Shown here: in pieces, positions 6,737-40,641 of the stretch
Numbering within the stretch: the stretch's first letter is position 1
Layout: each line of letters begins with the position of its first letter
From: Dehalococcoidia bacterium
GTDB taxonomy: Bacteria; Chloroflexota; Dehalococcoidia; UBA2247; RBG-13-53-26
Length of the DNA: 64,000 bases
Direction of reading: 5' to 3'
Assembly: GCA_030372995.1 (NCBI GenBank)
Contig: JAUCPZ010000335.1
Coordinates: 12,537-76,536 of the forward strand
Position numbers and translations under genes: made by a program
The notes under the pieces: model-generated
Seen by the model: only the letters and a program-made list of their open reading frames with translations
Told to the model about the DNA's origin: nothing
Databases searched by the model: none

Positions 6737-6979
6737 CCTGCTGCGACATTATAGCAGCCCTGGATTTGAGTTGGATGTGCGACGGTGTTCTCTCACCATC
6801 CGCGGTTGACGAACGGAGCGAAGGCGGGCTTTGCGCGGCGCGAGACGTTTGGTAGAATGCTGACATTGCCCGCCCGGCACACGGACGGGTGAAGCCGAGT
6901 GAGGTTGCTGCGCCTTCTTCTCGCTCATGGGAAGAACGGCTCGCAGTCATGATGTGAGACGATCGAAGGAGGAGGGCAG

Positions 6980-7279
6980 ATGATCAGAGTATCAGTCATG
7001 TATCCCAACGAGAAGGGAAAGCGGTTCGATCTGGACTACTTCACCAAGAAGCACATGGCCCTGGTCCACAAGCTTCTCGATCCCGCGGGCCTGGTGAAGT
7101 CCGAGGTGGACAAGGCGGCCGACCCCAACGCTCCCTTCGTTGCCGTAGCGCATCTCTATTTCAAGTCGCTCGAGGAGTCGCAGGTCGGCTTCGCCACTCA
7201 TGCCGCAGAATTCATGGCCGATATGCCCAACTACACCGACTTGGTGCCGCAGGTGCAGTTCAGCGAGATAGTCAAGTAG
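6980..7279 (+). CDS. EthD-family protein (TIGR02118-like)
   Basis: 99 aa. MIRVSVMYPNEKGKRFDLDYFTKKHMALV...PNYTDLVPQVQFSEIV matches the EthD small-protein pattern. SD aggagg lies upstream. Confidence 0.75.
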   Translation: MIRVSVMYPNEKGKRFDLDYFTKKHMALVHKLLDPAGLVKSEVDKAADPNAPFVAVAHLYFKSLEESQVGFATHAAEFMADMPNYTDLVPQVQFSEIVK

Positions 7280-7378
7280 GGGCCGGGGCCCCTCGCAGAT
7301 TCTCGGGCCGTCTCCTGGTCTGCGCGTCGCGCGCCCAATGGGCGCGGCGTTGGGAGGCGGGACAGCCGCGGGAGGGGA

Positions 7379-8104: not shown

Positions 8105-8140
8105 GGTGGATCAAATCCGCTTAAGGCGGACGGATCCACC
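8105..8140. terminator. compound hairpin between convergent genes
   Basis: ggtggatc..tccgc-ttaag-gcgga..gatccacc read directly. A second 6-bp hairpin lies at about 8167-8188. Confidence 0.45.
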
Positions 8141-8199
8141 GCGGTCTCCGTGTGGCGATGCGATGGTGGGTCCGCTGCGCTTGACCCAGCCTACATTGC

Positions 8200-11262: not shown

Positions 11263-11446
11263 GTTGTTTCCTTTTCAACCCCCTGGCCCCCACTCTTGGG
11301 GGCAGGAGAAAGAGCCTGGGGGACACCCCCAGCCCCCGGTCCGCCTCGGGCGGACACCTCTGTTCTGTCATTCCCGCGGAGGCGTGAATCCAAAACGGCC
11401 CTTGGAGGGCTATCCTCCGTCGTGGCTAGCAGAGCATACTGTGCAA

Positions 11447-12232
11447 CTACTTGCCCGGGAAGTTGGGCTTCCTCCTCTCCTGGAAGGACCTCAGCCCTTC
11501 TTTGGCGTCCTGCGTCTGGAAATGGGCCCGTGAGGCCGCCTTCTCGATCTCAATCCCGGTGTAAAGATCAACCTGCATGCCGCGGTTGATGGAGTACTTG
11601 ATGTACTTGGAGGCCATGGGGCTCCGTTGCACCAGCTTGTCCACCACGCCTTCGACGTACTCGCGGAGCTTCTCCCGCGGCACGGCCTTGTTGATGATGC
11701 CCCACCTCTCCGCCTCCTTGGCCGTCATCCAGTCGCCCGTGAACATGAGCTCCCGCGCCACTCTCAGAGGGATCAGCCGGGGCAGACGCTGTGAACCGCC
11801 GCCGCTGGGTATCAGGCCGATCGAGGCATGCTGATCGCCGATATTCACATCGTCGGCAGCATAGGCCAGATCGCAGGCCTCTGCCAGTTCCAGTCCTCCG
11901 GCCAAAGCATGCCCGTTGATCATGGCGATGTTGATCTTACTCATGTGCTCCATCAGATAGAACGTGTCGTGGAACATCTGGCCGTACTCGGCAACGGCTA
12001 TGGGATCGTCCTGGTGAGCGAGAGTCCACTTCAGGTCACCGCCGGCGCTGAAGGCCTTGCCGGCTCCCGTGATCACAATCACTCTGACTTCTGGGTCTTT
12101 GTCCAGTTCTGACAAGCAGCTCTGCAACTGCCTGTGTGTCTCCGGGTCCAGGGCGTTCATGGCGTCCGGCCGGTTGATGGTCAGCCAGGCAGCCCCCTTC
12201 TTCTTCTCTATCAAGAGGTTGCTGTAGTTCAC
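11447..12232 (-). CDS. enoyl-CoA hydratase/isomerase (crotonase) family protein
   Basis: 261 aa. ITGAGKAFSAGGDL and GHALAGGLELAEACD oxyanion-hole motifs. GTG start preceded by ggaaggagg. Confidence 0.9.
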   Translation of the reverse strand: MNYSNLLIEKKKGAAWLTINRPDAMNALDPETHRQLQSCLSELDKDPEVRVIVITGAGKAFSAGGDLKWTLAHQDDPIAVAEYGQMFHDTFYLMEHMSKINIAMINGHALAGGLELAEACDLAYAADDVNIGDQHASIGLIPSGGGSQRLPRLIPLRVARELMFTGDWMTAKEAERWGIINKAVPREKLREYVEGVVDKLVQRSPMASKYIKYSINRGMQVDLYTGIEIEKAASRAHFQTQDAKEGLRSFQERRKPNFPGK

Positions 12233-12369
12233 CAGGGGTTCCTCCTTCCGATGGCGTGTTCTGTGCTTAGGCGCGTACGGTCCGCTTATGTCACGGCCAA
12301 AGCAGAATTCTACGGGTTACGCGTGGCCAGTGTCAATTTGCGAGGCCGGAAATGCACTCTGTTCAAGAA

Positions 12370-12398
12370 TTGCCCGCTCTTGAGGGCTGGGCTATAAT
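12370..12398 (+). promoter_or_regulatory. sigma70-like promoter TTGCCC-N17-TATAAT
   Basis: Read directly, about 75 nt upstream of the OYE-type reductase start. Confidence 0.45.
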
Positions 12399-12471
12399 GT
12401 CTCGAATCGTCGGGGGAGGACGATAATCCTAGCGTGGTCCCGACAAACGGGGGACTGAAAAAGGAGTGCAT

Positions 12472-13713
12472 ATGGCAAAGGCGCCTGTGGAGACGCGAAA
12501 GGCTTTTACACCGGGGAAGATCGCCGGCCTGACGCTGCGCAACCGGATTATCAGGGCCGGTTGCTTCGAGGGTATGTGCGAGAACGGAAGTTGCTCCGAT
12601 CTCTTAATTGAGCACCACCGCAAGGTGGCTGCGGGTGGTGCGGCCATGACCACCGTGTCGTATTGCTCGGTGTCCGAGGCTGCCCGCGCCTACGGGCACG
12701 AAATGTGGATGCGAAAGGAGATCCTGCCCGACCTGCGGCGGTTGACGGATGCGGTTCACAAAGAGGGCGGCGCCGCTTCAATTCAGCTGGGTCACTGCGG
12801 GTACTTCGCCAGCAAGGCCGACACCGGGTTTCAGCCGGTAGGCGCCTCGCGGAAATTCAACCTTTTCCGCATTAGTTTCCCCAAGCCCATGACCGAGGCC
12901 GACATCAACCAGGTGATTAAGCAGTTTGCGGACGCAGCGGTGATGGCCAGGGAAGCCGGGTTCGACGCTGTCGAGATCCATTCAGGCCATGGCTATCTGC
13001 TGAGCCAGTTCCTGTCCCCGTATACCAACAAGAGGACCGACAACTACGGCGGCTCCTTGGAGAACCGCATGCGTTTCCCCGCTGCAGTGGTCAGGGCGGT
13101 CAGACAGGCCATGGGGCCGGATTTCCCCGTGATGGTCAAGATGAACATGACTGATGGCATCAAGGGCGGCATCGAGATTGAAGACGCCGTGCAGATCGCC
13201 AAGCGCTTTGAGGCTGAGGGAGCCAGCGCCTTGGTGCCAAGCTGCGGTTTCACCTCCAAAACTCCCTTCATGATGATGCGTGGAAACCTGCCCATCCTGG
13301 AGTTTGCAGCTGCCGACAAGAGCTTCATGCGCAAGTTCGGGCTGGTCTTCTTTGGCCGCTTCATGTGTCAGGAATTCCACTACGAGGACCTCTTCCTGAT
13401 GGAGGACGCTCTTAAGATACTGAAGGCCGTCAAGATACCGGTGGTCCTGGTCGGTGGTATCTGCTCTCTCGACGACTTAGACAAGGCCATGAACGCGGGA
13501 TTCGAGTTTGTGGAGATCGGCCGGGCGATAATCAAGGACCCGGACATCGTGAAGAAGTGGCAAAGGGCTGAGGTCACAGCTTCTGATTGCGACCACTGTA
13601 ACCGGTGTGTCGCGGTTATGAACGGCGGGCCGGTGTACTGTGTCTGCAACGAGAAAGGTCCTCTGAAGAGGAGGTTTCAGCCCAAGGGCTTGCCCGGCAC
13701 CTGGCGTGCCTAG
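12472..13713 (+). CDS. NADH:flavin oxidoreductase, Old Yellow Enzyme family
   Basis: FMN TIM-barrel motifs (GFDAVEIHSGHGYLLSQFLSPYTNKRTDNYGGSLENRMRF). The ATG at 12472 has SD aaggag 5 nt upstream. The track ORF begins at GTG 12466. Confidence 0.88.
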   Translation: MAKAPVETRKAFTPGKIAGLTLRNRIIRAGCFEGMCENGSCSDLLIEHHRKVAAGGAAMTTVSYCSVSEAARAYGHEMWMRKEILPDLRRLTDAVHKEGGAASIQLGHCGYFASKADTGFQPVGASRKFNLFRISFPKPMTEADINQVIKQFADAAVMAREAGFDAVEIHSGHGYLLSQFLSPYTNKRTDNYGGSLENRMRFPAAVVRAVRQAMGPDFPVMVKMNMTDGIKGGIEIEDAVQIAKRFEAEGASALVPSCGFTSKTPFMMMRGNLPILEFAAADKSFMRKFGLVFFGRFMCQEFHYEDLFLMEDALKILKAVKIPVVLVGGICSLDDLDKAMNAGFEFVEIGRAIIKDPDIVKKWQRAEVTASDCDHCNRCVAVMNGGPVYCVCNEKGPLKRRFQPKGLPGTWRA

Positions 13714-19026: not shown

Positions 19027-19596
19027 ATGGGCAAAGTCACTCTGGGACCACAGACGCTCCTTTACCCGATGCCGGCGCTGCTTGTTGGCGCCAATGTGAA
19101 CGGTACGCCGAACTTCATGACGGTCGCCTGGGGCGGTATCGCATGTGGCGAACCCCCTATGATCTCAGTGGCTATCCGGCACGTCAGGCACACGCTGAAG
19201 GGAATCAAGCAGAGCCAGACGTTCTCGGTGAATATCCCTTCGGTCGAATTGGTCAAGGAGACCGACTATTGCGGCACCGTCTCCGGCTCCAAGACTGACA
19301 AAGTGCACACCTGTCGCTTTGACGTCTTCTATGGCAAGCTGGGCAGTGCGCCGCTTATCAGACAGTTCCCGGTGAATCTGGAGTGCAGCGTAGTGCAAAC
19401 GCTGAACTCGGGCAGCCATGCGCTGGTCATCGGGCGCATCGAAGAAACGCATGTCTCCGAGGAGTGCCTGACGGGAGGCAAGCCGGATGTGGACAAGATC
19501 AAACCGCTGGTGTACGTCACCAGCCCCGCGGCGCGGTACCAGGGGTTGGGGGAAGTGGTGGGGAAAGCCTGGAGCGTAGGCAAACACCTCAGCTGA
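19027..19596 (+). CDS. flavin reductase-like (FMN-binding split-barrel) protein
   Basis: 189 aa. PALLVGANVNGTPNFMTVAWGG pattern. SD aggagg. Confidence 0.88.
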   Translation: MGKVTLGPQTLLYPMPALLVGANVNGTPNFMTVAWGGIACGEPPMISVAIRHVRHTLKGIKQSQTFSVNIPSVELVKETDYCGTVSGSKTDKVHTCRFDVFYGKLGSAPLIRQFPVNLECSVVQTLNSGSHALVIGRIEETHVSEECLTGGKPDVDKIKPLVYVTSPAARYQGLGEVVGKAWSVGKHLS

Positions 19597-20047: not shown

Positions 20048-20581
20048 GATCTAGTAGCCTTCATTGCCCTGCACGGCTGCATGGCCGGTGACTGCGCTGT
20101 AGGGGCTCGCCATGCGGACGTAGTGGATCGTCCCTTGGGTGGCATATATCATTAGCATTAGCATCAAGACCTGACAGGCGGCGAAGCGCGCGGCGGATGA
20201 GCGAAAGCCTGCTTCGCTGACTAGGTTATGTACATCTTCATGGCGCCGCTGCCAATCATGCGGCTGCGCGCTGGTGGCGGCTGATCTTGACGGCCGCGGT
20301 ATGTCTCGTTAGTCTTTGGGGGCATCGACTTCACTACTCTGTCTATCGGCAGACTAGCTGAAACCGAATAGCTGTTCAGACTCCAAACCTTCGGGAGACA
20401 GATATTGGCTGCAGTGATGTGAGGTGCGTGTCGGTTTCCCTCGGAGCGAAAGTGCGTGATCGAGTGTTTCTCACGACGTCAGTCCGGGATTGGGGTCTAC
20501 GGCAAGGTTGAGCAAAGAGCACATCATTAGCCACTCCCCTGCCTTGGCAGACGGGGCTGGGTGGCAAAGAAGGAGGATATC

Positions 20582-20797
20582 ATGGCAGACAGCGTGTACA
20601 AGGTGATCGAGCTCGTTGGGACGAGCACGGAATCGTGGGAGAAGGCTGGCGCCGCCGCTGTTGAGCAAGCGGCCAAGACCCTTCGCGATCTTCGGATTGC
20701 CGAGGTTGTCGAGATGGACATGCAGATCGACGATGGCAAAGTCCGCGCGTATCGAACGAAGATCAAACTCTCGTTCAAATACGAAAAGGAAGAATAG
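20582..20797 (+). CDS. dodecin-family flavin-binding protein
   Basis: MADSVYKVIELVGTSTESWEKAGAAAVEQAAKTLRDLRIAEVVEMDMQIDDGKVRAYRTKIKLSF is the classic dodecin pattern. SD aaggagg. Confidence 0.85.
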   Translation: MADSVYKVIELVGTSTESWEKAGAAAVEQAAKTLRDLRIAEVVEMDMQIDDGKVRAYRTKIKLSFKYEKEE

Positions 20798-21374: not shown

Positions 21375-21777
21375 ACCTGCGTGAAATCACAACGATCGGA
21401 GCAAGCAGCAGCCAGCGTTTGCCCGGGCCAAGGGCGGAAGCGTTGCGGGGCGTGACTTCCTGTAGACGCCCGATGCAGATTCCGCAGCTTGAGCAGCAGA
21501 GATTCGTGCAGACTAGCCTCTTCTCCCCGCGACGTGAGCAGCGATGTCTGATTCGCGGGGTGCAATCCAATGACTAGGTCGCAGCCAGCGCAGAACACCC
21601 CGCCTTCGCCGACGTGACGGAAACCCAGGAGCAGCATCGTGGATTGCCTGTCTTGACAGATCGGGGGTGCACCCCGCAGCGGTGGATGCTTCCGTCCTGT
21701 GTGACTGGTGATGGCGAGAGGAGAGATACACCGGGAATTTGATCAGCCCGTTGTCGAGTTGGGGAAGGAGGTTCGGC

Positions 21778-22158
21778 TTGGCAAAATACGCACAGTGGAT
21801 AGAGCACAAAGGCAAGCGGATCTTGTTTGTGAACGGCCCTGGCCTGAGCGAAGCCCAGTACATTGAGGCCATGGAGGAGATGAAGCAGGAGATTCTCAAG
21901 GAGAAGGAAGGGGCTTTGGTGCTGGTAAACGTGGCGGGAATTGACATGACAAAAGCTGTGGTTGACAAATCCAAGGAAGTTGTCAACGCCACCAAGGAAG
22001 CCGGCATACCGGACAGGGCCAATGTCGTGGTGGGGCTGACCGGACTGCAAAAGGCTGTGGCGCAGCTGTTTGGCAGAGGCGTGCAGTTTGTAGACACCGT
22101 CGAGGAAGGCAAAGAACGGCTGATCAAAGAGGACGAAAAGCGTCAGAAGAAGAGATAG
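21778..22158 (+). CDS. small conserved protein of unknown function, tandem paralog B
   Basis: TTG start after SD ggaaggagg gives (M)AKYAQWIEHKGKRILFVN..VVVGLTGLQKAVAQLFGRGVQF..EGKERLIKEDEKR. The track ORF 21739.. starts further upstream. Confidence 0.7.
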   Translation: MAKYAQWIEHKGKRILFVNGPGLSEAQYIEAMEEMKQEILKEKEGALVLVNVAGIDMTKAVVDKSKEVVNATKEAGIPDRANVVVGLTGLQKAVAQLFGRGVQFVDTVEEGKERLIKEDEKRQKKR

Positions 22159-22401: not shown

Positions 22402-22542
22402 TGGAGTGTTGTCGGTCAGGACTGCTGTGATGCACTACAACTCGGCGGTCATGCCGGGCGTCACATCAGTCGGACACGAGGCATGCCCGCTTCCTCTCGC
22501 GGCGATTGGCTGAGAAGGCCACTTGGATTGACCTCCAGCATC

Positions 22543-23322
22543 ATGTACAGGGACTTCGCCAGATTCTACGCGCGCGGCGACTGGCCGCGCTATAGCAGCA
22601 GGATGGCCAGCATGCTGCCGGGTGTGCTGGAACATTTTGGCCTGTGGCCTCGGAACTTACTGGACCTGGCTTGCGGGGAGGGCACGTTTGCCGTGGCCAT
22701 GGCCAAGAGGGGGTTGGCAGTAACCGGAATCGATCTGTCCCCCGAGATGCTGGACATCGCGAGAGAGCGGGCGGAGAAGGAGGGTCTCGACATTCTCCTT
22801 CTCCAGCAGGATATGCGTTCGCTCCACCTCCGTGGCAAATTCGACCTAGTCACCTGCTGGTTTGACAGCCTGAATTACCTTCTGGAGATCGGGGATCTGG
22901 TACGGACTTTCGCCGGCGTATCACGTGTCCTCGACCAGCGCGGCATCTTCATCTTCGATATGAACACTATTCGCGCTCTCTCTACGGAGTGGATCAGCGA
23001 GCCCTGCTACGTACATCTCGACTCGCGCGACGTCTTTCTCGCATCCGTTCCCAAGTATGATCCGGCTGCTAGGATAGCCAGCCTTCACATCATGGGGTTC
23101 TCCAGAGAGGATGAGGGGTGGGTGAGGGTGGACGAGATCCACCGCGAGCGCGGATACACTCTTAAGGAGGTCCGGCAATGCCTGAGGAAGGCCGGCCTCC
23201 GCGAAATGGCTTGCTGGGCTAGCCTCGACAGGAAGGAGAAACCGAGACGAAGCTCCGTGCGCGTATGGTTTGTAGCGGGCCGGCAGCCGGAACATGCGCG
23301 CCCGAAATCCGCCGCAGCCTAG
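22543..23322 (+). CDS. class I SAM-dependent methyltransferase
   Basis: Motif I LLDLACGEGTFAVAMAKRG and DLSPEML. Start chosen at MYRDFARFY. Confidence 0.85.
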   Translation: MYRDFARFYARGDWPRYSSRMASMLPGVLEHFGLWPRNLLDLACGEGTFAVAMAKRGLAVTGIDLSPEMLDIARERAEKEGLDILLLQQDMRSLHLRGKFDLVTCWFDSLNYLLEIGDLVRTFAGVSRVLDQRGIFIFDMNTIRALSTEWISEPCYVHLDSRDVFLASVPKYDPAARIASLHIMGFSREDEGWVRVDEIHRERGYTLKEVRQCLRKAGLREMACWASLDRKEKPRRSSVRVWFVAGRQPEHARPKSAAA

Positions 23323-25535
23323 GCCTTGAATACTCGGCACGCGAGGGCCCGGTCGCACCAGCCGCCCGAGAGCTCGTCACACCATTCCGGGTCGTCTAGA
23401 GTCAGGACATTGGCGTTCGACTCGAAGACGCCGCTGAATTCTGGCTCGTTCGCCGGGTACTCCGGGAACCACCAGCTGGCCTGACAGTTGACCACGTTGG
23501 GCAGCATGCCCGCATTGTATCTTGCCCTTTGCCTGATCCATCCCCGCCGGGTTTCGATGCAGGCCCAGTCCCCGTCGGCGATCCCCAGCTTGGCGGCAGT
23601 CTCCGGATGGATGTCCATGAGCGGGTCGGGGTGCTTCTCCCTGCCACCCATTCCGTGATGCATGAACTCGGAATGGAACATGGGCATGAAGTTGCCCCCT
23701 GTGTTCAGGATGAGCGGGAATTCTCTGGCTACATCGGGGACTCTCAAGGGGCTTTCAGGAGGTTCCTCGTAGTAGGGCAACGGGTCGTAGCCGAGCTTCT
23801 CCAGAATACTGGAGTAAAGCTCGATCTTCCCTGACGGGGTGGGGAAGCCCGTCTTCTTCCAGGGCTGCATGTCTAGTCTATCGGGAAAAGCCGCATACTT
23901 CTCGACGAGCTCTCTGAAGGTCAAACCGATCGGCCTCAGACGGTAGTCGCTGACCTCCTCAGTTGTCTTCCACGGCCAGTGCTCTTGCTGACCCACGGCT
24001 AGCGCCAGTCCGCGGAAGAACTCGTAGATATCCAGCCGCTCTCCCATGGGCAGGATGGCCTTCTCACCAGCGCGGACGAGGCTGCCGAAATCCATCATGT
24101 TGGTGCAGAGGTCCCTCTCCAGCCAACTGGCGGCCGGCAGAACATAGTCCGCTAGTTGCGCCGAAGGAGTCATGAACAGCTCCTGCACTACGTGAAGCTC
24201 AAGGTTGTCGCTCCTCAAGGCTTCAAAGACCAACCGGGTGTTTCCCGCCCATGCGAGAGGATTGGAGCCCCAGGCAATAAGGGCCTTCACTGGGTATGGT
24301 TTGCCCGTCAGGATGGACCGCCAGAGCATAGTGGTGTGCGCCTGAATCTGGACGGTCACGGGCGCGGGGACGCCGTAGACCCGCTGGAGGTGGGGTTCCA
24401 TCAAACTCCAACCGTTCAAGGAGACCAGCCGGCAGATGTCGAAGCCCATCTGCTTGCGTCGCTGCTCCATCGGCAGAAGGTTCATCAGGCTCAATTCGGC
24501 CTCGGTGATGAACTTGCCGCCGTTCGTCGGCTCGCCGGGGCGGGTGATCAGGTGGCCGCCGAGGACACCCAGGTTGCCAGTAATGGCGCGGAGCGCGATC
24601 TTGCACTGCTCCGCGCGGGTGCCGTTCAACCCCAGTTGGTCAATGGCCACTCCGTACGGCATGCACGCCGGCCCATGGGTAGCGTACGTTCGCGCGGCTT
24701 CGATGATCTTGTCCGCCGGGACGCCGGTGATTTCAGCCACGCGCTCGGGTGGATATTCCTGGACGCGCGCTTTGAGGCGGTCAAAGCCGACTGTCCATTC
24801 CGCGACGAAATCCTTCTTGTAGAGGCCCTCATTTATGATGACGTTCAGCCAGGCCAGCGCCAGCGCGGTATCTGTGCCCGGCCTCAGCCTCAGCCAGATA
24901 TCGGCCACCTCCGTTGTCTTGGTCTGGCGGGGATCAACGACGATGACTTTGAGATCACCCTTTCGCTTCTTCTTGAGAAGTCCCGCCCAGCCGCGCATGT
25001 TCGACTCGGACGGGTCAGACCCCCAATAGACGACGCACCGGGAATTGGACATCTCGATGGCATAGGTAGTGACATCGCCCATGACGGCCATGTTGATGGC
25101 CATGTCATTAATGCCACAGATAATGCCGGGCGCAAAGATGTTGTGAGGGTTGCCGAAGAGGGTGGCGAAGCGGCCTCGGGGCCAGTAGTCGTTGCCCCGG
25201 TACGTGCCCTCGAAGAAACCCAGCGTCTCGCCGCCGTGCTCATTTCGGAGCTCCAGCAGCTTCTGCCCGATCTCGCTGAAAGCCTGGTCCCAGCTTATCC
25301 TCTCCCATTTCCCCTCGCCACGGCTGCCAGCCCGCTTCAACGGGTGCATCAGTTGAGCGGGATGGTAGAGCCACTGGGGAGCGAGGCGGACTCTCTCGCA
25401 GACAAACCCGCGGCTCAACGGGTTGTCGGGATTGCCCCTGACGCTGACCACCTTTCCGTCTTCGACGGTCACGAGCACTCCGCAGAGGTTGCTGCAGTAC
25501 TGACAATAGGTCTTCTTGATGGTCTGATCACCCAC
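23319..25535 (-). CDS. cytoplasmic bis-MGD molybdo/tungsto-enzyme of the DMSO-reductase superfamily, acetylene-hydratase-like
   Basis: 738 aa with no signal peptide. N-terminal CQYCSNLC..C 4Fe-4S motif. Long stretches resemble, from memory, Pelobacter acetylenicus acetylene hydratase (RISWDQA, VGF..LK.RVQEYP..VAEITG, FMTPSAQLADYVLP, TPSGKIELYSSILEKLGYDPLPYYEEP). Confidence 0.9.
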   Translation of the reverse strand: MGDQTIKKTYCQYCSNLCGVLVTVEDGKVVSVRGNPDNPLSRGFVCERVRLAPQWLYHPAQLMHPLKRAGSRGEGKWERISWDQAFSEIGQKLLELRNEHGGETLGFFEGTYRGNDYWPRGRFATLFGNPHNIFAPGIICGINDMAINMAVMGDVTTYAIEMSNSRCVVYWGSDPSESNMRGWAGLLKKKRKGDLKVIVVDPRQTKTTEVADIWLRLRPGTDTALALAWLNVIINEGLYKKDFVAEWTVGFDRLKARVQEYPPERVAEITGVPADKIIEAARTYATHGPACMPYGVAIDQLGLNGTRAEQCKIALRAITGNLGVLGGHLITRPGEPTNGGKFITEAELSLMNLLPMEQRRKQMGFDICRLVSLNGWSLMEPHLQRVYGVPAPVTVQIQAHTTMLWRSILTGKPYPVKALIAWGSNPLAWAGNTRLVFEALRSDNLELHVVQELFMTPSAQLADYVLPAASWLERDLCTNMMDFGSLVRAGEKAILPMGERLDIYEFFRGLALAVGQQEHWPWKTTEEVSDYRLRPIGLTFRELVEKYAAFPDRLDMQPWKKTGFPTPSGKIELYSSILEKLGYDPLPYYEEPPESPLRVPDVAREFPLILNTGGNFMPMFHSEFMHHGMGGREKHPDPLMDIHPETAAKLGIADGDWACIETRRGWIRQRARYNAGMLPNVVNCQASWWFPEYPANEPEFSGVFESNANVLTLDDPEWCDELSGGWCDRALACRVFKA

Positions 25536-25911
25536 GGAGAGTCACCCCGTCACATATGGTAGCAGTTTTGTGATCGGGTTGAAACGCGCCGCCGAGGGGC
25601 CACGTATTGGCGAATGCAGAAGCGTGCTTCCGCGAGTCTTGTCGCCCTCTTCCGTCATCTCCCATTGAGGAAGAGAGAACTTCGGGAACAAGCTCGACAT
25701 ACTGGTTACACATTCACCAAACACATGGCTAGCAATTGACTTCCCGATGACCTCTCGAGCGAGGAGGGCTACCCATTTGGGTTTGGTTCTTCGCCCGAGA
25801 ATGCAGGCCAGGAGTCAAACAAATGCCAACGCTTTCCCGTTGGCCTCCCTGACCGTGTGCGTGCTAACATATATGTCAATACACTGCAGAAGCCTAGAAG
25901 GGGGAGCGTAC

Positions 25912-26715
25912 ATGGCCAAGAAGACGATCGCAGAAATCTTTGATCTCACCGGCAAGGGAGCCATTGTCACCGGCGGCGCCATGGGCATAGGCAGGGCTAT
26001 TGTCATGCGCCTGACGGAAGCTGGCGCTGGAGTCATGATTGTGGACATCGATATGGACGCGGCCAGCAAGGTGGTGCAACGGGTCAAAGAGAAGGGAGGC
26101 AAGGCGGAGGCCATCCGGGCTGACATCCGCAGCCTGGCTGACGCCAAGAAGGTGGTCGAGGCGACTGTGCAGGCCTTCGGGAGCTTGGACATATTGGTGA
26201 ACAACGCCGGGATATATCCCATCTCCAAAGCCCTCGATACCACCGAGGAGCTGTGGGACAGGGTGCTGGATATAAACCTCAAGGGCACATTCTTCTTCTC
26301 CCAGGCGGCGGCACGCGAAATGGTCAGGGCCAAGCACGGCGGCAGGATCATCAATTTGGCCTCCATTGATGCGGTGCATCCGATGGGTGACGTAGCGCAT
26401 TACAACGCCTCGAAGGGGGGAGTCATGTCCCTCACCAAGGCGCTGGCCCTGGAATGGGCGCCTTACGGCATAATCGTGAATGCAATCGCTCCTGGCAGCA
26501 TCTGGACGTCGGGCTCGGAGAAACTCAGGATGGAGCAGGAGGCTGCCGGCAAGGACCCGAAGGAAATGCTCAAGAAGTTCGAGACCCGCTGGCCCCTGGG
26601 CCGGCCCGGGGAGCCGGACGACATTGCCAAGGTGGCACTCTTCTACGCCAGCGACGCCGTAAACTACGTCACGGGAACCACGCTGGTGGTGGACGGGGGA
26701 TATCTGCTCTCGTAG
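25912..26715 (+). CDS. short-chain dehydrogenase/reductase (FabG/glucose-1-dehydrogenase-like)
   Basis: TGGAMGIGRAI, NNAG, YNASKGG (YxxxK). ATG 25912 has SD gggggag. The track ORF starts further upstream. Confidence 0.92.
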   Translation: MAKKTIAEIFDLTGKGAIVTGGAMGIGRAIVMRLTEAGAGVMIVDIDMDAASKVVQRVKEKGGKAEAIRADIRSLADAKKVVEATVQAFGSLDILVNNAGIYPISKALDTTEELWDRVLDINLKGTFFFSQAAAREMVRAKHGGRIINLASIDAVHPMGDVAHYNASKGGVMSLTKALALEWAPYGIIVNAIAPGSIWTSGSEKLRMEQEAAGKDPKEMLKKFETRWPLGRPGEPDDIAKVALFYASDAVNYVTGTTLVVDGGYLLS

Positions 26716-26741
26716 ATCACCCAGCCGCGGCCTCAATCTGA

Positions 26742-28190
26742 ATGAGTAAGATCGACGACTCCTTCTTTGAGCACTCCTCGGTGGCCATCGCTGGCGCCTC
26801 TGCGGAATACAACATCGGTCATGCCTTCGTGCAGTGCCTGCAGGACGCTGGATTCCAGGGCCCCATCTATCCCTTGAACCCTGCCGGAGGCGAGGTCCGC
26901 GGGCTCAAGGTCTACCGCCACATTGCGGACATCCCTGGCACGGTGGACTACGTCATCTCCTGCATACCAGCGCGCTTCACGCCCCAACTGGTGAAGGACA
27001 GCGCGGCCAAAGGAGCCAGGATCGTCTCCTTCTTCACTGCTGGCTACTCCGAGTCCGGCAGGAGCGAGGGGAGAGACCTAGAACTGGAACTCTTGCGGGT
27101 GGCGCAGGCCACCGACGTCCGGCTGCTGGGCCCCAACTGCCTTGGCCTCTATTGCCCCCGGATCGGCCTCTCCTTCGCCGCTGATTTCCCCAAGGAGGCG
27201 GGGAACGTTGGCTTCATCGGCCAGAGCGGAGGCAACGCCATCTACCTGATCCGGGCAGCCGGGCACCGCGGCGTTCGCTTCAGCAAGGCCGTCTCATACG
27301 GCAACGCGTGCGACGTCGACGAATGCGATCTGCTGGAGTACTTCGCAACTGATAATGAGACCGAGGTAGTCGCTGCCTATATCGAGGGCGTCAAGGACGG
27401 TCGGCGGTTCCGCCGCGTGCTGAGGGATCTCTGCGCCCTCAAGCCGGTAGTCATACTCAAGGGTGGGTACACCACTGCCGGCGCAGTCGCCGCTTCATCA
27501 CACACTGGGTCCCTGGCGGGAACCGGCGAGTCGTGGGAGGGCCTCTTAAACCAGGCCGGTGCTGTTCGCGTCTACAGCCTGGATGAGATGGCGGACATGC
27601 TGGTGACCTTCTCGTACATGGTGCCGCCGCGGGGCAGAAGGGCGGTCATCTGCGGCAGCAATGGCGGCTTCAGCGTCCTGACCGCGGACGACTACATCCG
27701 GGCCGGCTTCGAACTGCCGCAGTTGGCGCCGAGGGAACAGGCTGATCTCCTCGAGCTGGTGGCGAAGTTCTCCAGCACTGACGCAGGTATGATGTTGCGA
27801 AATCCATTTGACATCACCAACGTCACGTCGCCAGAGGGGCACCACGCCATTATGCGCAGCCTCATGGCCAACCCGGGTTTTGACCTGCTGGTGGCCCAGG
27901 TGAGCATTAGCAATTCCGCCTGGCCCTTCGCAGAATCGCCGTACGTCTACTGGCCGGACATGTTCCTCGATTCGCTTCTTAGAGCCCAGCGCGACGTGGG
28001 CAAGCCCGCTGCGGTCATACTCCACAGCATTTGCAGTGCGGGAGAGTTCGAGAGAATGGCACGGCTGCGGGAGAAGTGTCAAAAGGCAGGACTGCCGGTC
28101 TACGATTCCATTCCGAAGGCAGCTCTGGCCATGGATCGTTTTCTCCGCTATCACGAAAGGCGCCGGCGGCAACATGCGGAGACAGGGTAA
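26742..28190 (+). CDS. NDP-forming acyl-CoA synthetase alpha-type protein (CoA-binding plus CoA-ligase domains, no ATP-grasp)
   Basis: 482 aa. SVAIAGAS.., PIYPLNP, LLGPNCLGLY, FIGQSGG, HTGSLAG motifs of the ACD/succinyl-CoA-synthetase alpha fold. Confidence 0.85.
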   Translation: MSKIDDSFFEHSSVAIAGASAEYNIGHAFVQCLQDAGFQGPIYPLNPAGGEVRGLKVYRHIADIPGTVDYVISCIPARFTPQLVKDSAAKGARIVSFFTAGYSESGRSEGRDLELELLRVAQATDVRLLGPNCLGLYCPRIGLSFAADFPKEAGNVGFIGQSGGNAIYLIRAAGHRGVRFSKAVSYGNACDVDECDLLEYFATDNETEVVAAYIEGVKDGRRFRRVLRDLCALKPVVILKGGYTTAGAVAASSHTGSLAGTGESWEGLLNQAGAVRVYSLDEMADMLVTFSYMVPPRGRRAVICGSNGGFSVLTADDYIRAGFELPQLAPREQADLLELVAKFSSTDAGMMLRNPFDITNVTSPEGHHAIMRSLMANPGFDLLVAQVSISNSAWPFAESPYVYWPDMFLDSLLRAQRDVGKPAAVILHSICSAGEFERMARLREKCQKAGLPVYDSIPKAALAMDRFLRYHERRRRQHAETG

Positions 28191-28714: not shown

Positions 28715-29686
28715 ATGGGCGGTATCGACAGACGCGATTTCCTGCATAAGATGCTCGCTCTAGGCGGAGGCGCGCTGGCGACCGCTGCTTTCATATCTTT
28801 GCTCGGCTGCTCCCCAGATGACACGCTGCAGCCTCCGACCGACAATATCACTCCTCCTCCTCAACCACCGGCTGGCACGGCCTATCTGTCCGTGGCCAGG
28901 GGCGGCAACCCGGCCACATTGGTGCAAAGGGCCGTTGATGCCCTGGGTGGGATCGGACGGTTTGTCAAACCGGGTGATGACGTCATCGTCAAGCCGAACA
29001 TCTGTGTGAGCAACCGCACGCCCGAGTACGCGGCCACCACCAACCCTGAAGTGGTAGCCGCACTGGTCACGCTCTGCCTGGGTGCCGGGGCCAGCCGGGT
29101 CCGCGTGATGGACCACCCGTTCAGCGGAAGCGCTGAAGACGCCTACAAGAACAGTGGCATAAAGGCGGCGGTGGAGGCTGTGGGCGGCGAAATGGAGGTT
29201 ATGGCCAGCGTCAAGTTCCAGGATACGGCGATACCGAACGGCCGAAGCATCAGGTCTTGCCGTGTGTACAGGGACATTCTGAAGGCAGATGTACTTATAG
29301 ATGTGCCCATCGCCAAGGACCATGGAAACACGATCCTGACTCTGGGTATGAAGAATCTGCTGGGCGTGGTGGACAATGCGCCGAGCTACCACACGAGCAG
29401 CCTGTCCGAGCGTGTCGTCGACCTCAACACTCTGGTGCGGCCTCATCTTGTCGTGGTGGATGCCATCCGTGTTCTGATGAAGAATGGCCCCAGCGGAGGC
29501 AACCTCAGCGACGTCAGGCAGATGGATACCATTATTGCCAGCCACGACATCGTGGCGGCGGATTCATACGGCGCCACTCTCTTCGGCATGACGGGGGAGG
29601 ACCTGCCAATCGTCCGCATCGGTGCCGAGAGAGGGCTGGGCGTCATGGACCTGTCCAGCATCAAGATCGAAGAGATAGCAGCATAG
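28715..29686 (+). CDS. Tat-exported DUF362 lipoprotein
   Basis: 323 aa. Twin-arginine signal with lipobox (MGGIDRRDFLHKMLALGGGALATAAFISLLGCS). DUF362 core (VIVKPNICV..LIDVPIAKDHGNTILTLGMKNLLG..VDAIRVLMKNGP). Confidence 0.8.
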   Translation: MGGIDRRDFLHKMLALGGGALATAAFISLLGCSPDDTLQPPTDNITPPPQPPAGTAYLSVARGGNPATLVQRAVDALGGIGRFVKPGDDVIVKPNICVSNRTPEYAATTNPEVVAALVTLCLGAGASRVRVMDHPFSGSAEDAYKNSGIKAAVEAVGGEMEVMASVKFQDTAIPNGRSIRSCRVYRDILKADVLIDVPIAKDHGNTILTLGMKNLLGVVDNAPSYHTSSLSERVVDLNTLVRPHLVVVDAIRVLMKNGPSGGNLSDVRQMDTIIASHDIVAADSYGATLFGMTGEDLPIVRIGAERGLGVMDLSSIKIEEIAA

Positions 29687-29698
29687 GAGCAGTACGGG

Positions 29699-31258
29699 TT
29701 GGCTCCCCGAAAGACGTCGCGTAGGTGGCGCTGGGCCAGGCTATCGGTTCAAATCCTGATTCTCGTCCTGTTCCTCTACCTGCTGATAGGGAATCGGGTC
29801 GGTGCCGCTACCTTTCTGGCGGGTGACCTGTTCTTCCGCCTCGACCCACTGGCGGGGGTCTCTGCCATGCTGGCCGGGAGGCGCCTCATCGCTCCCATGC
29901 TGCTGGGTCTCCTGACAATCGGATTTGCCCTGCTACTCGGCCGGTCCTGGTGCAGTTGGGTCTGCCCACTCGGGACGCTGATCGAATGGACCAGCCTGCG
30001 CCGCTTCCGCAACGACCTGGTACATCCCTCCCAGTGGCGCCAGGTGAAGTATCTGACGCTGGTGGCCGTTCTCCTGGGTGCCCTGGCAGGCACCCTGGCC
30101 CTGATGATCCTTGACCCTATCACGCTTCTATTCCGCACGCTAACCTCCGGCTTCGTCCCCGCTCTGAACTGGATCGTGACCCACGCCGAGACTCACTTCT
30201 ATCGCTACCAGGCCCTGCAGGGCTTCATCGATGGCTTTGACGACTTTGTACGTGGTACGCTGTTGCCAGCCGCGGAGCCGTATTTCATCCCCAGCCTCGG
30301 GCTGATAGTTGTCTTCATAGGAATCTTGGCCATCAATGCCATCAGACCACGCTTCTGGTGCCGCTATGTTTGCCCCCTTGGTGGCTTTCTGGGGCTGTTG
30401 TCGCGGGTCTCGGTGTTCCGCCGCACCGTCGATCAGGAGAAGTGCAATCGCTGCCGCCGCTGTGCACGGGAGTGCCCGATGAATGCCATTGACTCGGAAA
30501 AGGCCTATGCTTCGGATCCTGCTGAATGCACGCTCTGTCTGAAATGCGTAGAGAACTGCCCCACCCGTGCTATTGCAGTTCGCTCCCACACCCACCCAGC
30601 CAAGCCGGAACTTGAGGGACTGACCCGGCGGCAGGTACTCGGGTCATTCGGCATCATGCTGGCCGGCGTGGCTCTGCTGCGTCTGGCGCCCCTGTTGCGG
30701 GGTGCTGAACAAGAGCGGCTCAGGCCACCCGGAGCGGGAGAAAACGACTTGTTGACGAAATGCATCCGCTGTGGTGTCTGCGTCAATATCTGCCCCACCC
30801 GCGCCATCCATCCGAGCGGGACAGGGCCGGACTACGATGGTACCTGGACACCGATGGTGGTACCGCGGCTCGGCTACTGCGACTATACCTGCAACCGTTG
30901 CGGAGAGGAGTGCCCTACCGGGGCGATTCCCAAGCTGTCATTGTCTGAGAAGCAACAGGCGGTGATCGGGAAGGCCGAGATCGATGAAGACCGCTGCCTC
31001 CCCTGGTCCCAGAACGTCAACTGCATCGTTTGCCAGGAGATGTGCCCTCTAGTTGACAAGGCCATTGAGCTGGAGGACGTGATGGTAGTCAATGGTGAAG
31101 GAATGGAAGTGGTCGTCCGCCGGCCGGTGGTGGTGAGGGAGCGGTGCATCGGCTGTGGCCTCTGCGAGCATCGCTGCCCTGTGAAGGGAGAGGCCGCGAT
31201 CAGGGTCTTTCCGGATGATGGCGAACGTCACCAGCGTCGGCGCGGGCGCTCACAATAG
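29699..31258 (+). CDS. membrane-bound polyferredoxin (NapH/NosR-like TM core plus six CxxCxxCxxxCP clusters)
   Basis: 519 aa. TM helices with CSWVCPLGT and FWCRYVCPLGG. Cluster motifs CNRCRRCARECP, CTLCLKCVENCP, CIRCGVCVNICP, CNRCGEECP, CIVCQEMCP, CIGCGLCEHRCP. TTG start 12 nt after the DUF362 gene. Confidence 0.85.
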   Translation: MAPRKTSRRWRWARLSVQILILVLFLYLLIGNRVGAATFLAGDLFFRLDPLAGVSAMLAGRRLIAPMLLGLLTIGFALLLGRSWCSWVCPLGTLIEWTSLRRFRNDLVHPSQWRQVKYLTLVAVLLGALAGTLALMILDPITLLFRTLTSGFVPALNWIVTHAETHFYRYQALQGFIDGFDDFVRGTLLPAAEPYFIPSLGLIVVFIGILAINAIRPRFWCRYVCPLGGFLGLLSRVSVFRRTVDQEKCNRCRRCARECPMNAIDSEKAYASDPAECTLCLKCVENCPTRAIAVRSHTHPAKPELEGLTRRQVLGSFGIMLAGVALLRLAPLLRGAEQERLRPPGAGENDLLTKCIRCGVCVNICPTRAIHPSGTGPDYDGTWTPMVVPRLGYCDYTCNRCGEECPTGAIPKLSLSEKQQAVIGKAEIDEDRCLPWSQNVNCIVCQEMCPLVDKAIELEDVMVVNGEGMEVVVRRPVVVRERCIGCGLCEHRCPVKGEAAIRVFPDDGERHQRRRGRSQ

Positions 31259-37775: not shown

Positions 37776-39167
37776 TTGAGCCAGTCGCAGAGGGTTTCGG
37801 CTGTGGCCCTATATGAGTATTTCTGTCCCGTTTGCGGGAGCGGCTTCGAGTTGATCCGGCCGATTAGCGACGCGCCCGGGAGCGCCGCGTGCCCGCAGTG
37901 CGGTTCTGAAGCGCAGAGGATGATGTCAGGGGTTTCGATTGCAGCCCGTGCGGCTCGGGCTGCTACCGAGCCTTTTGAAGCGGGTGTGAAGACGAAGAAA
38001 CCCGCTGGCGGAGAGCGCGCCGAGAACGAGGCAAGCGCCGTGGGCGCTGGATCCGACCGCGAACGGATCAGCCGGGACAGCGGGGCATCGGAGGTCAACC
38101 GCGGCGCAGACTTGGCTGCCGGGTGCTCACCCGATGGCACCGCCGTGAGCGCTCGGATGTCTGAGGAAGAAGACCGGGCGTCTCTTCACGGGGCCGCTCT
38201 CTGGGAAGACACCGGCCTGCTTGAGGTGCCATGGCTCTCAGCGAACGAGCTAGGTGGCGGAAACCTGTGGCACTTGCGTGATTGGGGGATAGCGTCGGTG
38301 TTCGGGTATCTCAGAGAGACAGGTGCCGCCGGGTCTGCTGGAACGGAGCCCATACCGGCCGGGCTGGATATGAAAGCTCCAGAGCTTGCTGCCGGAGAAC
38401 CCCCTCTCGCGCAGGACGCGTCCGCGGCTGAGCCGACCTCAGTGGTGTGGCCCGAGGGAATCATGAGGGAGCCCCCCACTTTCTCAGAGTGGCGCACTGC
38501 CATCTCCATCATGCCTTGGCTGCAGGAGACCGGCGTGGAATCCTCTGAGGCAGAGAAGGAAGTCTATGACATGGCAGGCCGGCGAGTGGAGGAGATGCCG
38601 GGTCTGCGGCCGCACCGGGGTAAGCGAATCGCCCGGCTTGAGCGGGCTGGCCGGCTCGACCGACAACCGGGAGACGAGGAGATCACCTATTCGGTTAGGC
38701 GGGCTACGCGTCCCATCAAGCAGCCGAAAGAAGGAAGGGCTGACTTCCCTCTGCCAGTCATTGAGGCCGCGTGGCGCAGGCAGGGAGGGAGGTGCGCCGG
38801 ATGCGGCAGATGGTTGATCTGGTCGCGCCGGAACAGGGAAGGCGCCGTCGGTGCGTGGGAGTCCCACCACAGGGTGCCGATCGAGCATGGAGGGAGCTCT
38901 GTGCTGTCGAATTGCGTCCTTCTCTGCTCAGGCGTGGCGGATTGTCATTTCAGGCGGGGGCACGGGGGAGTCGCGTGGACCCACTATGCTCCGCTCGAGG
39001 ATTCCTCGCTCCTATTCCTCTTCGCCGGTACACCGTCGGCAGCACCTCGCGTCGCCGGAGTCCCCCAGAGGAGAAACCTGCTGAGAGACGTTCTGGGGAT
39101 TCCTCAGTCACGAAGTCGCCCGCCAGAATCGGCCAAGGAGCAGGGCGCCCCCGATTCTACCGGGTGA
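37776..39167 (+). CDS. FmdB-type zinc ribbon, shared unassigned module and HNH endonuclease fusion protein
   Basis: ALYEYFCPVCG..CPQCGS ribbon. PWLSANELGGGNLWHLRDWGIASVFGYLRE matches the 34854 protein. HNH: CAGCGRWL..WESHHRVPIEHGGSSVLSNCVLLCSGVADCH. The start may be GTG 37803. TGATATAAT lies at 37747-37755. Confidence 0.8.
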   Translation: MSQSQRVSAVALYEYFCPVCGSGFELIRPISDAPGSAACPQCGSEAQRMMSGVSIAARAARAATEPFEAGVKTKKPAGGERAENEASAVGAGSDRERISRDSGASEVNRGADLAAGCSPDGTAVSARMSEEEDRASLHGAALWEDTGLLEVPWLSANELGGGNLWHLRDWGIASVFGYLRETGAAGSAGTEPIPAGLDMKAPELAAGEPPLAQDASAAEPTSVVWPEGIMREPPTFSEWRTAISIMPWLQETGVESSEAEKEVYDMAGRRVEEMPGLRPHRGKRIARLERAGRLDRQPGDEEITYSVRRATRPIKQPKEGRADFPLPVIEAAWRRQGGRCAGCGRWLIWSRRNREGAVGAWESHHRVPIEHGGSSVLSNCVLLCSGVADCHFRRGHGGVAWTHYAPLEDSSLLFLFAGTPSAAPRVAGVPQRRNLLRDVLGIPQSRSRPPESAKEQGAPDSTG

Positions 39168-40641
39168 TGTTCTTGATGGCTCTCGCAGCGCGCTCGATGC
39201 TGGGGAGCACAGGCACAGCCGCTGCTTTGAAAGAGTCCTCGATTTCGCGACGGCGGACCTCTGCCGGCCCGGGGGGCAGGACCAGCACCAGCGGCTTGGC
39301 ACCACTGCGGCCGTAATCCAGAAGTACCCTGTTGACGGCCTCGGTCACTTCTCTGGGATATATGTCCAGCAGGACCCCGGCGTTCTCATACACCAGCATG
39401 ATGTCGATCTGGGGCTCCTGCGCCACCAGGTCAAAAGCCTGTCTCACAGCGGCTGCGATGGCCTGCCGTTGACTCATGTCTACTGGATTAGTCAGCACGC
39501 TACCCACCTGCCCGATCGACTCTACCAGAGCTTTGGCGGTCTCTTGTCGCAGGGGTGGCACCAAGACCCCAGCCGCGGCGCAAACGTCGGAGATCAACAC
39601 CGCCTCCCCGCCGCCCCCGTCCGTCAGCCCGCAGATAGCGCCCAGGTTGCCGCGGCTGAGTCTGCCGAAGCGGTCCAGCAGCAGCAACGTATCACACATC
39701 TCGTCCAGGCTGTGCACCTCGATGGCTCCGGCCTGGCGCAGAGCGCCGGACCACACCGCCGGAGATGACGCCATCGCTCCAGTGTGGAAGAATATGGCTT
39801 TGTCGCCAGCTGGGCTGTTGCCCCCCTTCCACACCACCACAGGCTTGCGCCGCGTGGCAGCGCGCAGCACTTCAAGTAAACGCCTCGTATCGTGCGGCCC
39901 CTCGAGGTAAAGGGCGATGGCCTTGATCTCGTCGTCCTGGGTCAGATACGCGAGGAAATCGGCGACTCCCAAATCTGAGGCGTTGCCGATGCTTACTCCC
40001 TTGCCGAATCCCAAGCCATGGACCATGCCGTATTCCAGGATCTTGCCCATGATCCCGCCGCTCTGGACGATCAGCCCCACCGATCCCAAGGGCGGCCGGA
40101 CGCTGAACGGCCCGTAGGTTATGCCGTACCGCGGGTTGTAGATGCCGAAGCAATTGGGACCGATGATGCGGAAGCCGCCCTCCCGCGCCGCCCGCACCAT
40201 GTCCCGCTCTGCCTCGACCCAAACGGCATCGCCCGATTCCGAGAACCCGGCGGTGTAAAACTGGATGCACTTGACCTTCTTGGTGGCACACTCCCGCAGC
40301 AGGTCAGGCACGGACTCCCGAGGAATGCACGAAATCACCAGGTCCACCGGGCCAGGAATAGCGGTCAGGCTGGTCCATACCCTGTGACCCTGGAACTGGC
40401 CTCCATTCCTGTTCACTGCATACACACTGCCCCGGAAACCGCTGGAGAGTAGGGTCTTGAACCACAAGGCAGGCACCCGGGTCTCGTCACTTGAGACCCC
40501 AACGACGGCAATCGCTCTGGGGTGGAAGATGGACTCGAGTTCCGCAATGCTCGCCGGTCGCGCGCTACGCATCGTCCGTCGCTCCGCTGGCCGGCAACTC
40601 GTGATCAGGGAAAGCTCTGAAGCAAGCTCCGGCGGGGGCAA
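39157..40641 (-). CDS. NDP-forming acyl-CoA synthetase alpha-type protein, paralog of 26742..28190
   Basis: AIAVVGVSSD.., VYAVNRNGG, IIGPNCFGIYNP, IVQSGG, HTGAMAS. Start uncertain; an alternative ATG lies at 40572. Confidence 0.85.
   Translation of the reverse strand: MPPPELASELSLITSCRPAERRTMRSARPASIAELESIFHPRAIAVVGVSSDETRVPALWFKTLLSSGFRGSVYAVNRNGGQFQGHRVWTSLTAIPGPVDLVISCIPRESVPDLLRECATKKVKCIQFYTAGFSESGDAVWVEAERDMVRAAREGGFRIIGPNCFGIYNPRYGITYGPFSVRPPLGSVGLIVQSGGIMGKILEYGMVHGLGFGKGVSIGNASDLGVADFLAYLTQDDEIKAIALYLEGPHDTRRLLEVLRAATRRKPVVVWKGGNSPAGDKAIFFHTGAMASSPAVWSGALRQAGAIEVHSLDEMCDTLLLLDRFGRLSRGNLGAICGLTDGGGGEAVLISDVCAAAGVLVPPLRQETAKALVESIGQVGSVLTNPVDMSQRQAIAAAVRQAFDLVAQEPQIDIMLVYENAGVLLDIYPREVTEAVNRVLLDYGRSGAKPLVLVLPPGPAEVRRREIEDSFKAAAVPVLPSIERAARAIKNITR

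Follow-up and report, generated by a model that had tools for sequence, protein, structure and literature searches.

What reaction is catalysed by a molybdenum- or tungsten-dependent (Mo/W) enzyme that resembles acetylene hydratase (AH) but carries a serine at the position of the catalytic aspartate? The question is raised by a gene of a Dehalococcoidia bacterium (Chloroflexota; GTDB lineage UBA2247, RBG-13-53-26; GenBank assembly GCA_030372995.1), located in a stretch of 64,000 nucleotides (contig JAUCPZ010000335.1, positions 12,537 to 76,536 of the forward strand) that is called the window here and to which all coordinates refer. An earlier note, made from the sequence alone, had singled out this gene, had grouped it with neighbouring genes for a short-chain dehydrogenase/reductase (SDR) and an acyl-CoA-synthetase-like protein, and had proposed a phylogeny and a structural model as checks. 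We find that the gene product is a stand-alone, cytoplasmic enzyme with the AH fold, which contains one [4Fe-4S] cluster and, with Cys140 as its ligand, a Mo or W centre of the bis-molybdopterin guanine dinucleotide (bis-MGD) type. Very probably, this Cys-ligated enzyme is not an acetylene hydratase but a member of a large and functionally mixed group of AH- and dehydroxylase-like enzymes.

Fold, metal site and substrate pocket

The 738-residue protein contains three Pfam domains, Molybdop_Fe4S4 (residues 6-58), Molybdopterin (63-510) and Molydop_binding (620-715), all of which score above their cut-offs, and these domains together with the fold make it a member of the dimethyl sulfoxide (DMSO) reductase (MopB, bis-MGD) superfamily. 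Its top sequence match in the PDB is AH of Pelobacter (Syntrophotalea) acetylenicus (2e7z; E 7e-135, 454 bits, residues 8-719 against chain residues 3-706), followed by polysulfide reductase with 244 bits; ethylbenzene dehydrogenase and pyrogallol hydroxytransferase score 73 and 34 bits, respectively. The structural model, built with AlphaFold2 from 42 homologues (pLDDT 90.8, pTM 0.92), likewise has AH as its closest fold, with Foldseek template-modelling (TM) scores of 0.92/0.93, a root-mean-square deviation of 2.3 Å and about 35% identity to 2e7z, the next folds having TM scores of 0.81 or less.

The two enzymes have in common a four-domain bis-MGD fold, a monomeric state, cytoplasmic location without any signal for twin-arginine translocation (Tat), and a single N-terminal cluster. 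The cytoplasmic location of the window enzyme follows from the position of the first cluster cysteine at residue 11, the absence of a twin-arginine motif and the agreement of its start point with those of its orthologues. The length, the lack of a signal peptide and the single 4Fe-4S motif (C11/C14/C18/C46) given in the earlier note are borne out by the open reading frame (ORF), by Pfam and by the alignment to 2e7z, in which all of the AH motifs that it had named (RISWDQA; RVQEYP...VAEITG; FMTP.AQLADYVLP; TPSGK.ELYSS..EKLGYDPLPYY) are present as well.

The second-best solved relative, the polysulfide and thiosulfate reductase type (PsrA/PhsA), shares with the window enzyme an arginine two residues past the fourth cluster cysteine but differs from it in that the NCBIfam PhsA model gives 264 bits against a cut-off of 694. 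Polysulfide reductase is a Tat-exported enzyme that works with PsrB and PsrC, unlike the enzyme studied here. Assignments as formate dehydrogenase (NCBIfam Fdh-alpha, 276 bits against a cut-off of 666), assimilatory nitrate reductase (NasC, 200 against 1100) and PhsA were all rejected, as was DmsA, whose score was far under its cut-off.

Residues were mapped by sequence alignment to 2e7z, whose chain index plus 3 gives the published AH numbering. The AH cluster cysteines Cys9, Cys12, Cys16 and Cys46 correspond to C11, C14, C18 and C46, and the metal ligand Cys141 corresponds to C140. At the position of Asp13 the enzyme has Ser15 (CQYCSNLC, as compared to CQSCDINC in the AH chain), so both observations of the earlier note, the retained ligand and the serine at the essential site, are confirmed. 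The changes extend to Ile14 (Asn16), Lys48 (Arg48), Ile113 (Tyr112), Ile142 (Gly141), Trp179 (Met180), Trp293 (Tyr294) and Trp472 (Met481), whereas Phe611 is kept as Phe620. Asp13 is described in a 2025 review as specific to the AH subfamily, the D13E variant being active and D13A inactive (PMC12096430), and a density functional theory study describes an active site lined by Trp179, which is hydrogen-bonded to Asp13, Trp293, Trp472, Ile113, Ile142 and Phe611 (PMC7970554). The window enzyme thus shares with AH in the strict sense the cysteine ligand and the four cluster cysteines but lacks Asp13, Ile142, Trp179, Trp293 and Trp472.

As judged from the alignment, the replacement of six pocket residues (Asp13, Ile14, Ile142, Trp179, Trp293 and Trp472) indicates that the window enzyme is not an acetylene hydratase. 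The six sites are at the same time those at which its relatives differ most. That it might nevertheless hydrate acetylene, with some other residue standing in for Asp13, is a proposal to which the overall similarity to AH lends some colour, but we consider it hardly credible: the six differences include Asp13 and all three tryptophans, and AH-type sequences that keep all pocket residues do exist, in a separate clade.

Variation within the family and redox-fused relatives

Homologues were collected by a word-indexed search, which scored 7999 candidates and gave 3639 proteins at E ≤ 1e-30, and by an exhaustive search of 50%-identity representatives, which gave 2318 at the same threshold. In a set made up of the query and the 120 homologues that match it best (52-92% identity), 114 full-length sequences have a CxxCxxxC motif. 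Not one of them carries Asp behind the second cluster cysteine; the residue there is Ala in 32, Ser in 22, Thr in 19, Phe in 12, His in 8, Gly in 6, Tyr in 5, Pro in 4, Glu in 3, Asn in 2 and Ile in 1. In the 150 best representatives the motif lies within the first 120 residues of 99 (the other 51 lack it there), of which 4 carry Asp, 3 Glu and 30 His. The idea that a change from Asp to Ser was a special event in this gene, as the earlier note had implied, therefore has to be given up, since the family seldom has Asp at this site, which is hypervariable.

In an alignment of 42 sequences, the four cluster cysteines, Arg48 and Cys140 are invariant (a cysteine occupies the position equivalent to 140 in 101 of 102 family rows), and position 15 is the sixth most variable of 738. 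The eight positions equivalent to the AH pocket have a mean entropy of 2.19 bits, compared to 1.16 over all positions, a value that only 51 of 100,000 randomly drawn sets of the same size reached. With invariant cluster and ligand residues and such high entropy in the pocket, the family combines a fixed scaffold with a diversifying pocket.

In the phylogenetic trees, AH was represented only by two Asp-bearing proxies, P0137 and P0146, which score 646 and 607 bits against 2e7z, as opposed to 454 for the query; P0146 keeps Asp13, Ile14, Lys48, Cys141, Trp179, Trp293, Trp472 and Phe611. A FastTree tree was built from 107 rows (102 family members and, as outgroup, five DMSO-reductase-family paralogues from the same genome) and an IQ-TREE tree from 43 rows ('quick' mode, LG+C20+F+G4), both being quick searches without bootstraps that leave the deeper branching order unsettled. 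In both trees the AH-type pair forms one clade (support 100) and the query falls into a separate clade of 19-20 rows (100), both of them inside a clade of 37-38 rows (99). The query accordingly does not group with the sequences that stand for AH, although it shares a superclade with them, and the trees, together with the pocket replacements, support the earlier note's view of an AH-like enzyme with a different chemistry or substrate.

Several relatives carry redox modules in the same polypeptide chain. The tenth-ranked representative by score, P0134 (1216 residues), is 47% identical to the query over query residues 46-737, falls into the same superclade, and has a GltD-like module (Fer4_20 and Pyr_redox_2) inserted right behind the cluster domain. 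This architecture of about 1200 residues was found in 11 sequence clusters (P0134, P0296-P0304 and P0306; 1184-1222 residues) from several sources, on contigs of up to 143 kb, and no description of it was found in the literature examined. These uncharacterised proteins differ from the query in the NAD(P)H-flavoprotein insertion (about 470 residues), which the query lacks, and in having His after the second cluster cysteine. In a 46-row FastTree tree the GltD-fused clade (100), the query and the AH-type pair all fell into one 36-row clade (99), and a more weakly supported group of 33 rows (91) comprised the query and the fused forms and left the AH-type pair outside. Among more distant relatives, P0179 is fused to a four-cluster ferredoxin domain (Fer4_11), and P0231, P0253 and P0257 have Tat signals. 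One further representative, P0222 (1158 residues), combines an AH-like subunit with two C-terminal ferredoxin motifs and an [FeFe]-hydrogenase large-subunit domain; this domain order hints at a hydrogen-driven reductase, although with a single representative an assembly error is possible.

Reductive catechol dehydroxylases adjoin AH in a published placement (PMC7028382). Those of the Gordonibacter type (Cldh, Dodh and Gp Hcdh) are bis-MGD enzymes described as most related to AH, with a Tat-less catalytic subunit of about 770 residues, a small accessory subunit and a large uncharacterised diversity in environmental sequences (PMC7028382, PMC11585353). The window enzyme, which was compared to them by description only, agrees with the given characteristics of the catalytic subunit (738 residues, no Tat signal; PMC11585353). 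The Gordonibacter-type family has expanded, each paralogue acting on one narrow substrate, and the hypervariable pocket and the multiple copies in some Dehalococcoidia genomes form a similar pattern. However, the adjacent small iron-sulfur accessory subunit of these enzymes, often accompanied by a transporter or a LuxR-type regulator, has no counterpart beside the window enzyme's gene: the immediate neighbours are the SDR and a methyltransferase, and no iron-sulfur neighbour is conserved in orthologous loci.

We tentatively favour the reading that the window enzyme is a carrier-dependent reductase of an organic substrate, that is, a redox enzyme of the AH/catechol-dehydroxylase group. Reduction is preferred because redox modules are fused to relatives in the same superclade, because dehydroxylases have been published, and because the acid-base residue of the hydratase is lost. 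Electrons from a soluble carrier, such as ferredoxin or a flavoprotein, would enter through the [4Fe-4S] cluster and pass by way of the pterin to the metal, which would strip an oxygen function off the substrate in a dehydroxylase- or deoxygenase-type reduction, and the enlarged pocket, with the small residues Ser15 and Gly141, would give the substrate access to the metal. The earlier note was right to expect a different chemistry, but in weighing only hydratase-type chemistry or another substrate it missed the reductive option to which the fused modules and the published dehydroxylases point.

Neighbouring genes and the competing readings

Gene neighbourhoods were compared in 91 loci (13 from species-representative genomes and 80 from metagenomes, minus two duplicates). 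Sequences with the motif CQ[FY]CSN.C were defined as the Ser-Asn type, and SDR genes were counted where the upstream flank measured 600 bp or more. In 9 of 12 Ser-Asn loci (L011, where it is partial, L012, L013, L014, L019, L020, L023, L028 and L053, but not L015, L016 and L027), the opposite strand encodes upstream an SDR with 71-93% identity to that of the window, whereas no orthologous SDR was found in the six loci of the nearest other subtypes (75-81% identity); all of these loci are close kin, so the counts do not represent independent events. In the Ser-Asn subtype, a carbonyl or alcohol group, of either substrate or product, might next be acted upon by the SDR. Of the nine Ser-Asn loci with at least 3 kb of upstream flank, only two (L027 and L053) contain the acyl-CoA-synthetase-like gene. 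Of the earlier suggestion that both neighbours could handle a carbonyl product, the SDR part is confined to a shallow Ser-Asn subclade, and with the CoA-ligase-like gene so rarely kept a three-gene carbonyl-handling cluster is not supported.

Other subtypes have neighbours of their own. In the three Thr-Asn-Val loci an aminotransferase gene lies upstream of the enzyme gene, and in all three Ala-Ala-Leu loci (L021, L033 and L034; 75-81% identity) the enzyme gene is trailed, after 9-81 bp and on its own strand, by a gene for a 640-residue FMN/FAD NAD(P)H oxidoreductase, which likewise speaks for redox chemistry among the relatives. At a distance of 3.7 kb upstream, L033 contains two further genes with a weaker resemblance to the SDR (56-61% identity). 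In the same locus (positions 6001-13494), and partly in L021 and L034, the AH-like gene heads a series of genes of one strand, for the FMN/FAD oxidoreductase, a four-cluster ferredoxin (Fer4_11) and a Mo enzyme resembling pyrogallol hydroxytransferase, a gene order compatible with a possible polyphenol-related operon. Across the 91 loci, the most frequent neighbour families were aldehyde:ferredoxin oxidoreductase (AOR; 8 loci), methyltransferase and SDR (7 each), an array of small ORFs (cluster 3) and FMN/FAD oxidoreductase (6 each), and the pyrogallol-hydroxytransferase-like enzyme (5).

Several points weigh against a reductase. The only alignable characterised relative is the non-redox AH, which is far nearer than any redox enzyme (454 versus 244 bits; TM 0.92 versus 0.81 or less), and no electron-transfer subunit adjoins the gene in the window. 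Clustering of 404 neighbouring ORFs from the 91 loci gave no family that is present in more than eight loci, and a Pfam scan of 42 same-strand neighbours (from a total of 60, after omission of 18 that were known antisense ORFs, repeats of scanned clusters or very short ORFs) yielded a heterogeneous collection with no common partner. A hydratase that yields a carbonyl or an enone would just as well be expected to have an SDR or an enoate-reductase-type neighbour acting downstream, and AOR, the commonest neighbour, would fit an aldehyde product. Finally, the substrate, the metal and the direction in which electrons move are matters of inference alone.

The same facts keep alive the main rival explanation, that of an AH-type hydratase or hydro-lyase without redox chemistry. 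Such an enzyme would add W- or Mo-bound water to a larger unsaturated substrate, such as a substituted alkyne, an allene or an activated alkene, and the carbonyl or alcohol so formed would then be reduced or oxidised by the SDR. No characterised enzyme is nearer than AH in sequence or fold, and AH is the only tested relative that can be aligned; the window enzyme is, like AH, monomeric and cytoplasmic, with no conserved partner; its pocket is enlarged; and the neighbours (the SDR retained by most Ser-Asn genes, the enoate-reductase type, and AOR at 8 of 91 loci) suit a carbonyl product. We still hold this explanation to be somewhat unlikely. The acid-base residue that is essential in AH, where D13A is inactive (PMC12096430), is missing, as is its hydrogen-bonding partner Trp179 (PMC7970554), and no substitute acidic residue is found at the mapped positions. 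Furthermore, Asp or Glu occupies this site in only 7 of the 99 representatives, and redox modules are fused to members of the same superclade.

The architecture of the enzyme, which is redox-capable and has conserved residues leading from cluster to pterin, would also suit the opposite direction of electron flow. An anaerobic hydroxylase or dehydrogenase would take oxygen from water and deliver electrons via the cluster to ferredoxin or a flavoprotein, and the neighbouring SDR would oxidise the new alcohol, in parallel to ethylbenzene dehydrogenase, which is followed by 1-phenylethanol dehydrogenase. Pyrogallol-hydroxytransferase-like genes near 5 of 91 family members are consistent with such a role. 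However, the known anaerobic Mo hydroxylases of the superfamily belong to other clades and have dedicated iron-sulfur and haem subunits, ethylbenzene dehydrogenase and pyrogallol hydroxytransferase are matched with 73 and 34 bits only, and nothing indicates in which direction electrons flow, so that we consider an oxidative role improbable and retain the carrier-dependent reductase as the preferred reading.

Features of the window are listed in Table 1. The Mo/W gene stands alone on its strand, with the convergent methyltransferase gene at its 3' side and the divergent SDR gene at its 5' side. The SDR most likely starts at 25912, as a GGGGGAG-type ribosome-binding site lies just ahead and its orthologues align over 267 residues from there. 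A consensus scan of positions 23000-26100 detected no promoter-like site in the intergenic region between the two genes; two promoter-like sites, both within coding sequence (0.7 expected), and three terminator-like sites (2.2 expected) were found in the scanned segment. Past the SDR, the plus strand carries the acyl-CoA-synthetase alpha-like gene, a 144-codon ORF, the DUF362 gene and the NapG/NapH-like polyferredoxin gene.

Table 1. Mo/W enzyme gene and other features of the window (positions in the 64,000-nucleotide stretch)
Feature	Position	Strand	Basis or remark
Mo/W enzyme gene (P0001, 738 residues, GTG start)	23319..25535	-	ORF and translation, AH fold
N-terminal [4Fe-4S] (FS0) domain, residues 6-58, C11/C14/C18/C46	25362..25520	-	PF04879, E 2.9e-14
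Ser15 codon (AGC), position of AH Asp13	25491..25493	-	alignment to AH and codon read
Cys140 codon, presumed Mo/W ligand (AH Cys141), followed by Gly141 (AH Ile142)	25116..25118	-	alignment
Divergent intergenic region between Mo/W and SDR genes, 376 bp	25536..25911	.	sequence read
Classical SDR, 267 residues, divergent	ORF 25747-26715, likely gene 25912..26715	+	PF13561/PF00106; NF005559, 254 bits against cut-off 215
NDP-forming acyl-CoA-synthetase alpha-like gene	26742..28190	+	PF13607, PF13380; TIGR02717, 329 bits, under the 567-bit cut-off; context gene
Second acyl-CoA-synthetase alpha-like gene	39157-40641	-	paralogue of the preceding gene
S-adenosylmethionine-dependent methyltransferase gene, convergent, 4-bp end overlap with Mo/W gene	22483..23322	+	PF13649
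Small paralogous ORFs, about 125 residues	21003-21374, 21739-22158	+	no Pfam match
Dodecin (flavin-storage protein), 78 residues, 2.5 kb from Mo/W gene	20561-20797	+	PF07311, E 6e-26
Flavin-reductase-like gene	19027..19596	+	PF01613
DUF362 gene and NapG/NapH-like polyferredoxin gene (519 residues)	28715-31258	+	Pfam/NCBIfam
DUF362 gene fused to ferredoxin domain	4329-5477	-	second DUF362 of the window
MobA-like gene	48152-48859	-	23 kb from Mo/W gene

As far as the immediate neighbours go, the earlier note was right in seeing no electron-transfer subunits next to the gene, but three possible carriers are encoded within about 4 kb, namely the DUF362/polyferredoxin pair, the flavin-reductase-like protein and dodecin. 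Likewise, the mobA gene that it mentioned is present but, given its distance, is little informative. The flavin-reductase-like gene recurs 1-4 kb downstream of orthologues in six loci (74-81% identity), and its product might be an electron carrier. The methyltransferase recurs at 67-76% identity (tblastn) in eight loci, in each of which the Mo/W gene is at least 87% identical to that of the window. The small ORFs of the window belong to a tandem array that has two copies here and four or five in the loci of close relatives (L011, 3800-6200; L020, 8980-10650; L025; L075). The array always sits between the methyltransferase and flavin-reductase-like genes; its antisense frame is open too, and its coding strand was assigned from conservation only. 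Both acyl-CoA-synthetase alpha-like genes encode CoA_binding_2 and Succ_CoA_lig domains, and neither adjoins a recognisable ATP-grasp beta subunit.

Distribution and significance

AH-like genes were reported on Chloroflexi scaffolds in 2013 (PMC3971608), and in 2020 AH and the dehydroxylases were described as surrounded by a broad range of uncharacterised enzymes (PMC7028382). Our literature search found no paper on Dehalococcoidia members or on the pairing of Ser-Asn enzymes with an SDR, although members from Chloroflexota may already be among the supplementary sequences and in the trees of PMC7028382 and PMC10100899. Taken alone, the window gene adds little; its product is a typical member, of the non-AH kind, of a very large group of enzymes, most of them with unknown substrates. 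One study equates the age of the branch with that of acetylene-based growth (PMC10100899). In our sample, the AH-defining residues belong to a small minority (Asp in 4 of the 99 representatives, the full signature being confirmed in one), and therefore the AH-like genes of Chloroflexota and other anaerobes should not be read as evidence of acetylene use. The subtype-specific neighbours and the fused redox forms provide handles for finding substrates in a group in which tests have so far been confined to AH and a few gut dehydroxylases.

The close relatives of the query all come from metagenome-assembled genomes of Dehalococcoidia or Chloroflexota. A match at E ≤ 1e-100 was present in 34 of the 201 sampled genomes of the class and in 6 of 7 other genomes of the same family, whereas the single sampled genome of the same genus (93% complete) had no match; some genomes had five or more scored matches. 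A rather unlikely extension of these data is that subsurface Dehalococcoidia might maintain a diversified AH/dehydroxylase-like set that is used like reductive dehalogenases. Each subtype would act on one oxygenated or unsaturated compound, for example a humic- or lignin-derived phenolic, and would be paired with a particular second enzyme, the Ser-Asn subtype with an SDR and the Ala subtype with an enoate-reductase-type flavoprotein. The combination of the Ser-Asn enzyme and SDR would then represent a two-step module for an as yet undescribed transformation.

The genome that contains the window has this single AH-like member, five DMSO-reductase-family paralogues of different types and nine AOR-family genes, a set of pterin enzymes that is unusually rich for a 3.1-Mb genome. 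The nine AOR-family genes make tungsten use plausible, and the metal of the window enzyme may be tungsten. Two of the five paralogues are encoded in tandem on contig C201 (L002 and L003), and one (L006) has a Tat-like signal.

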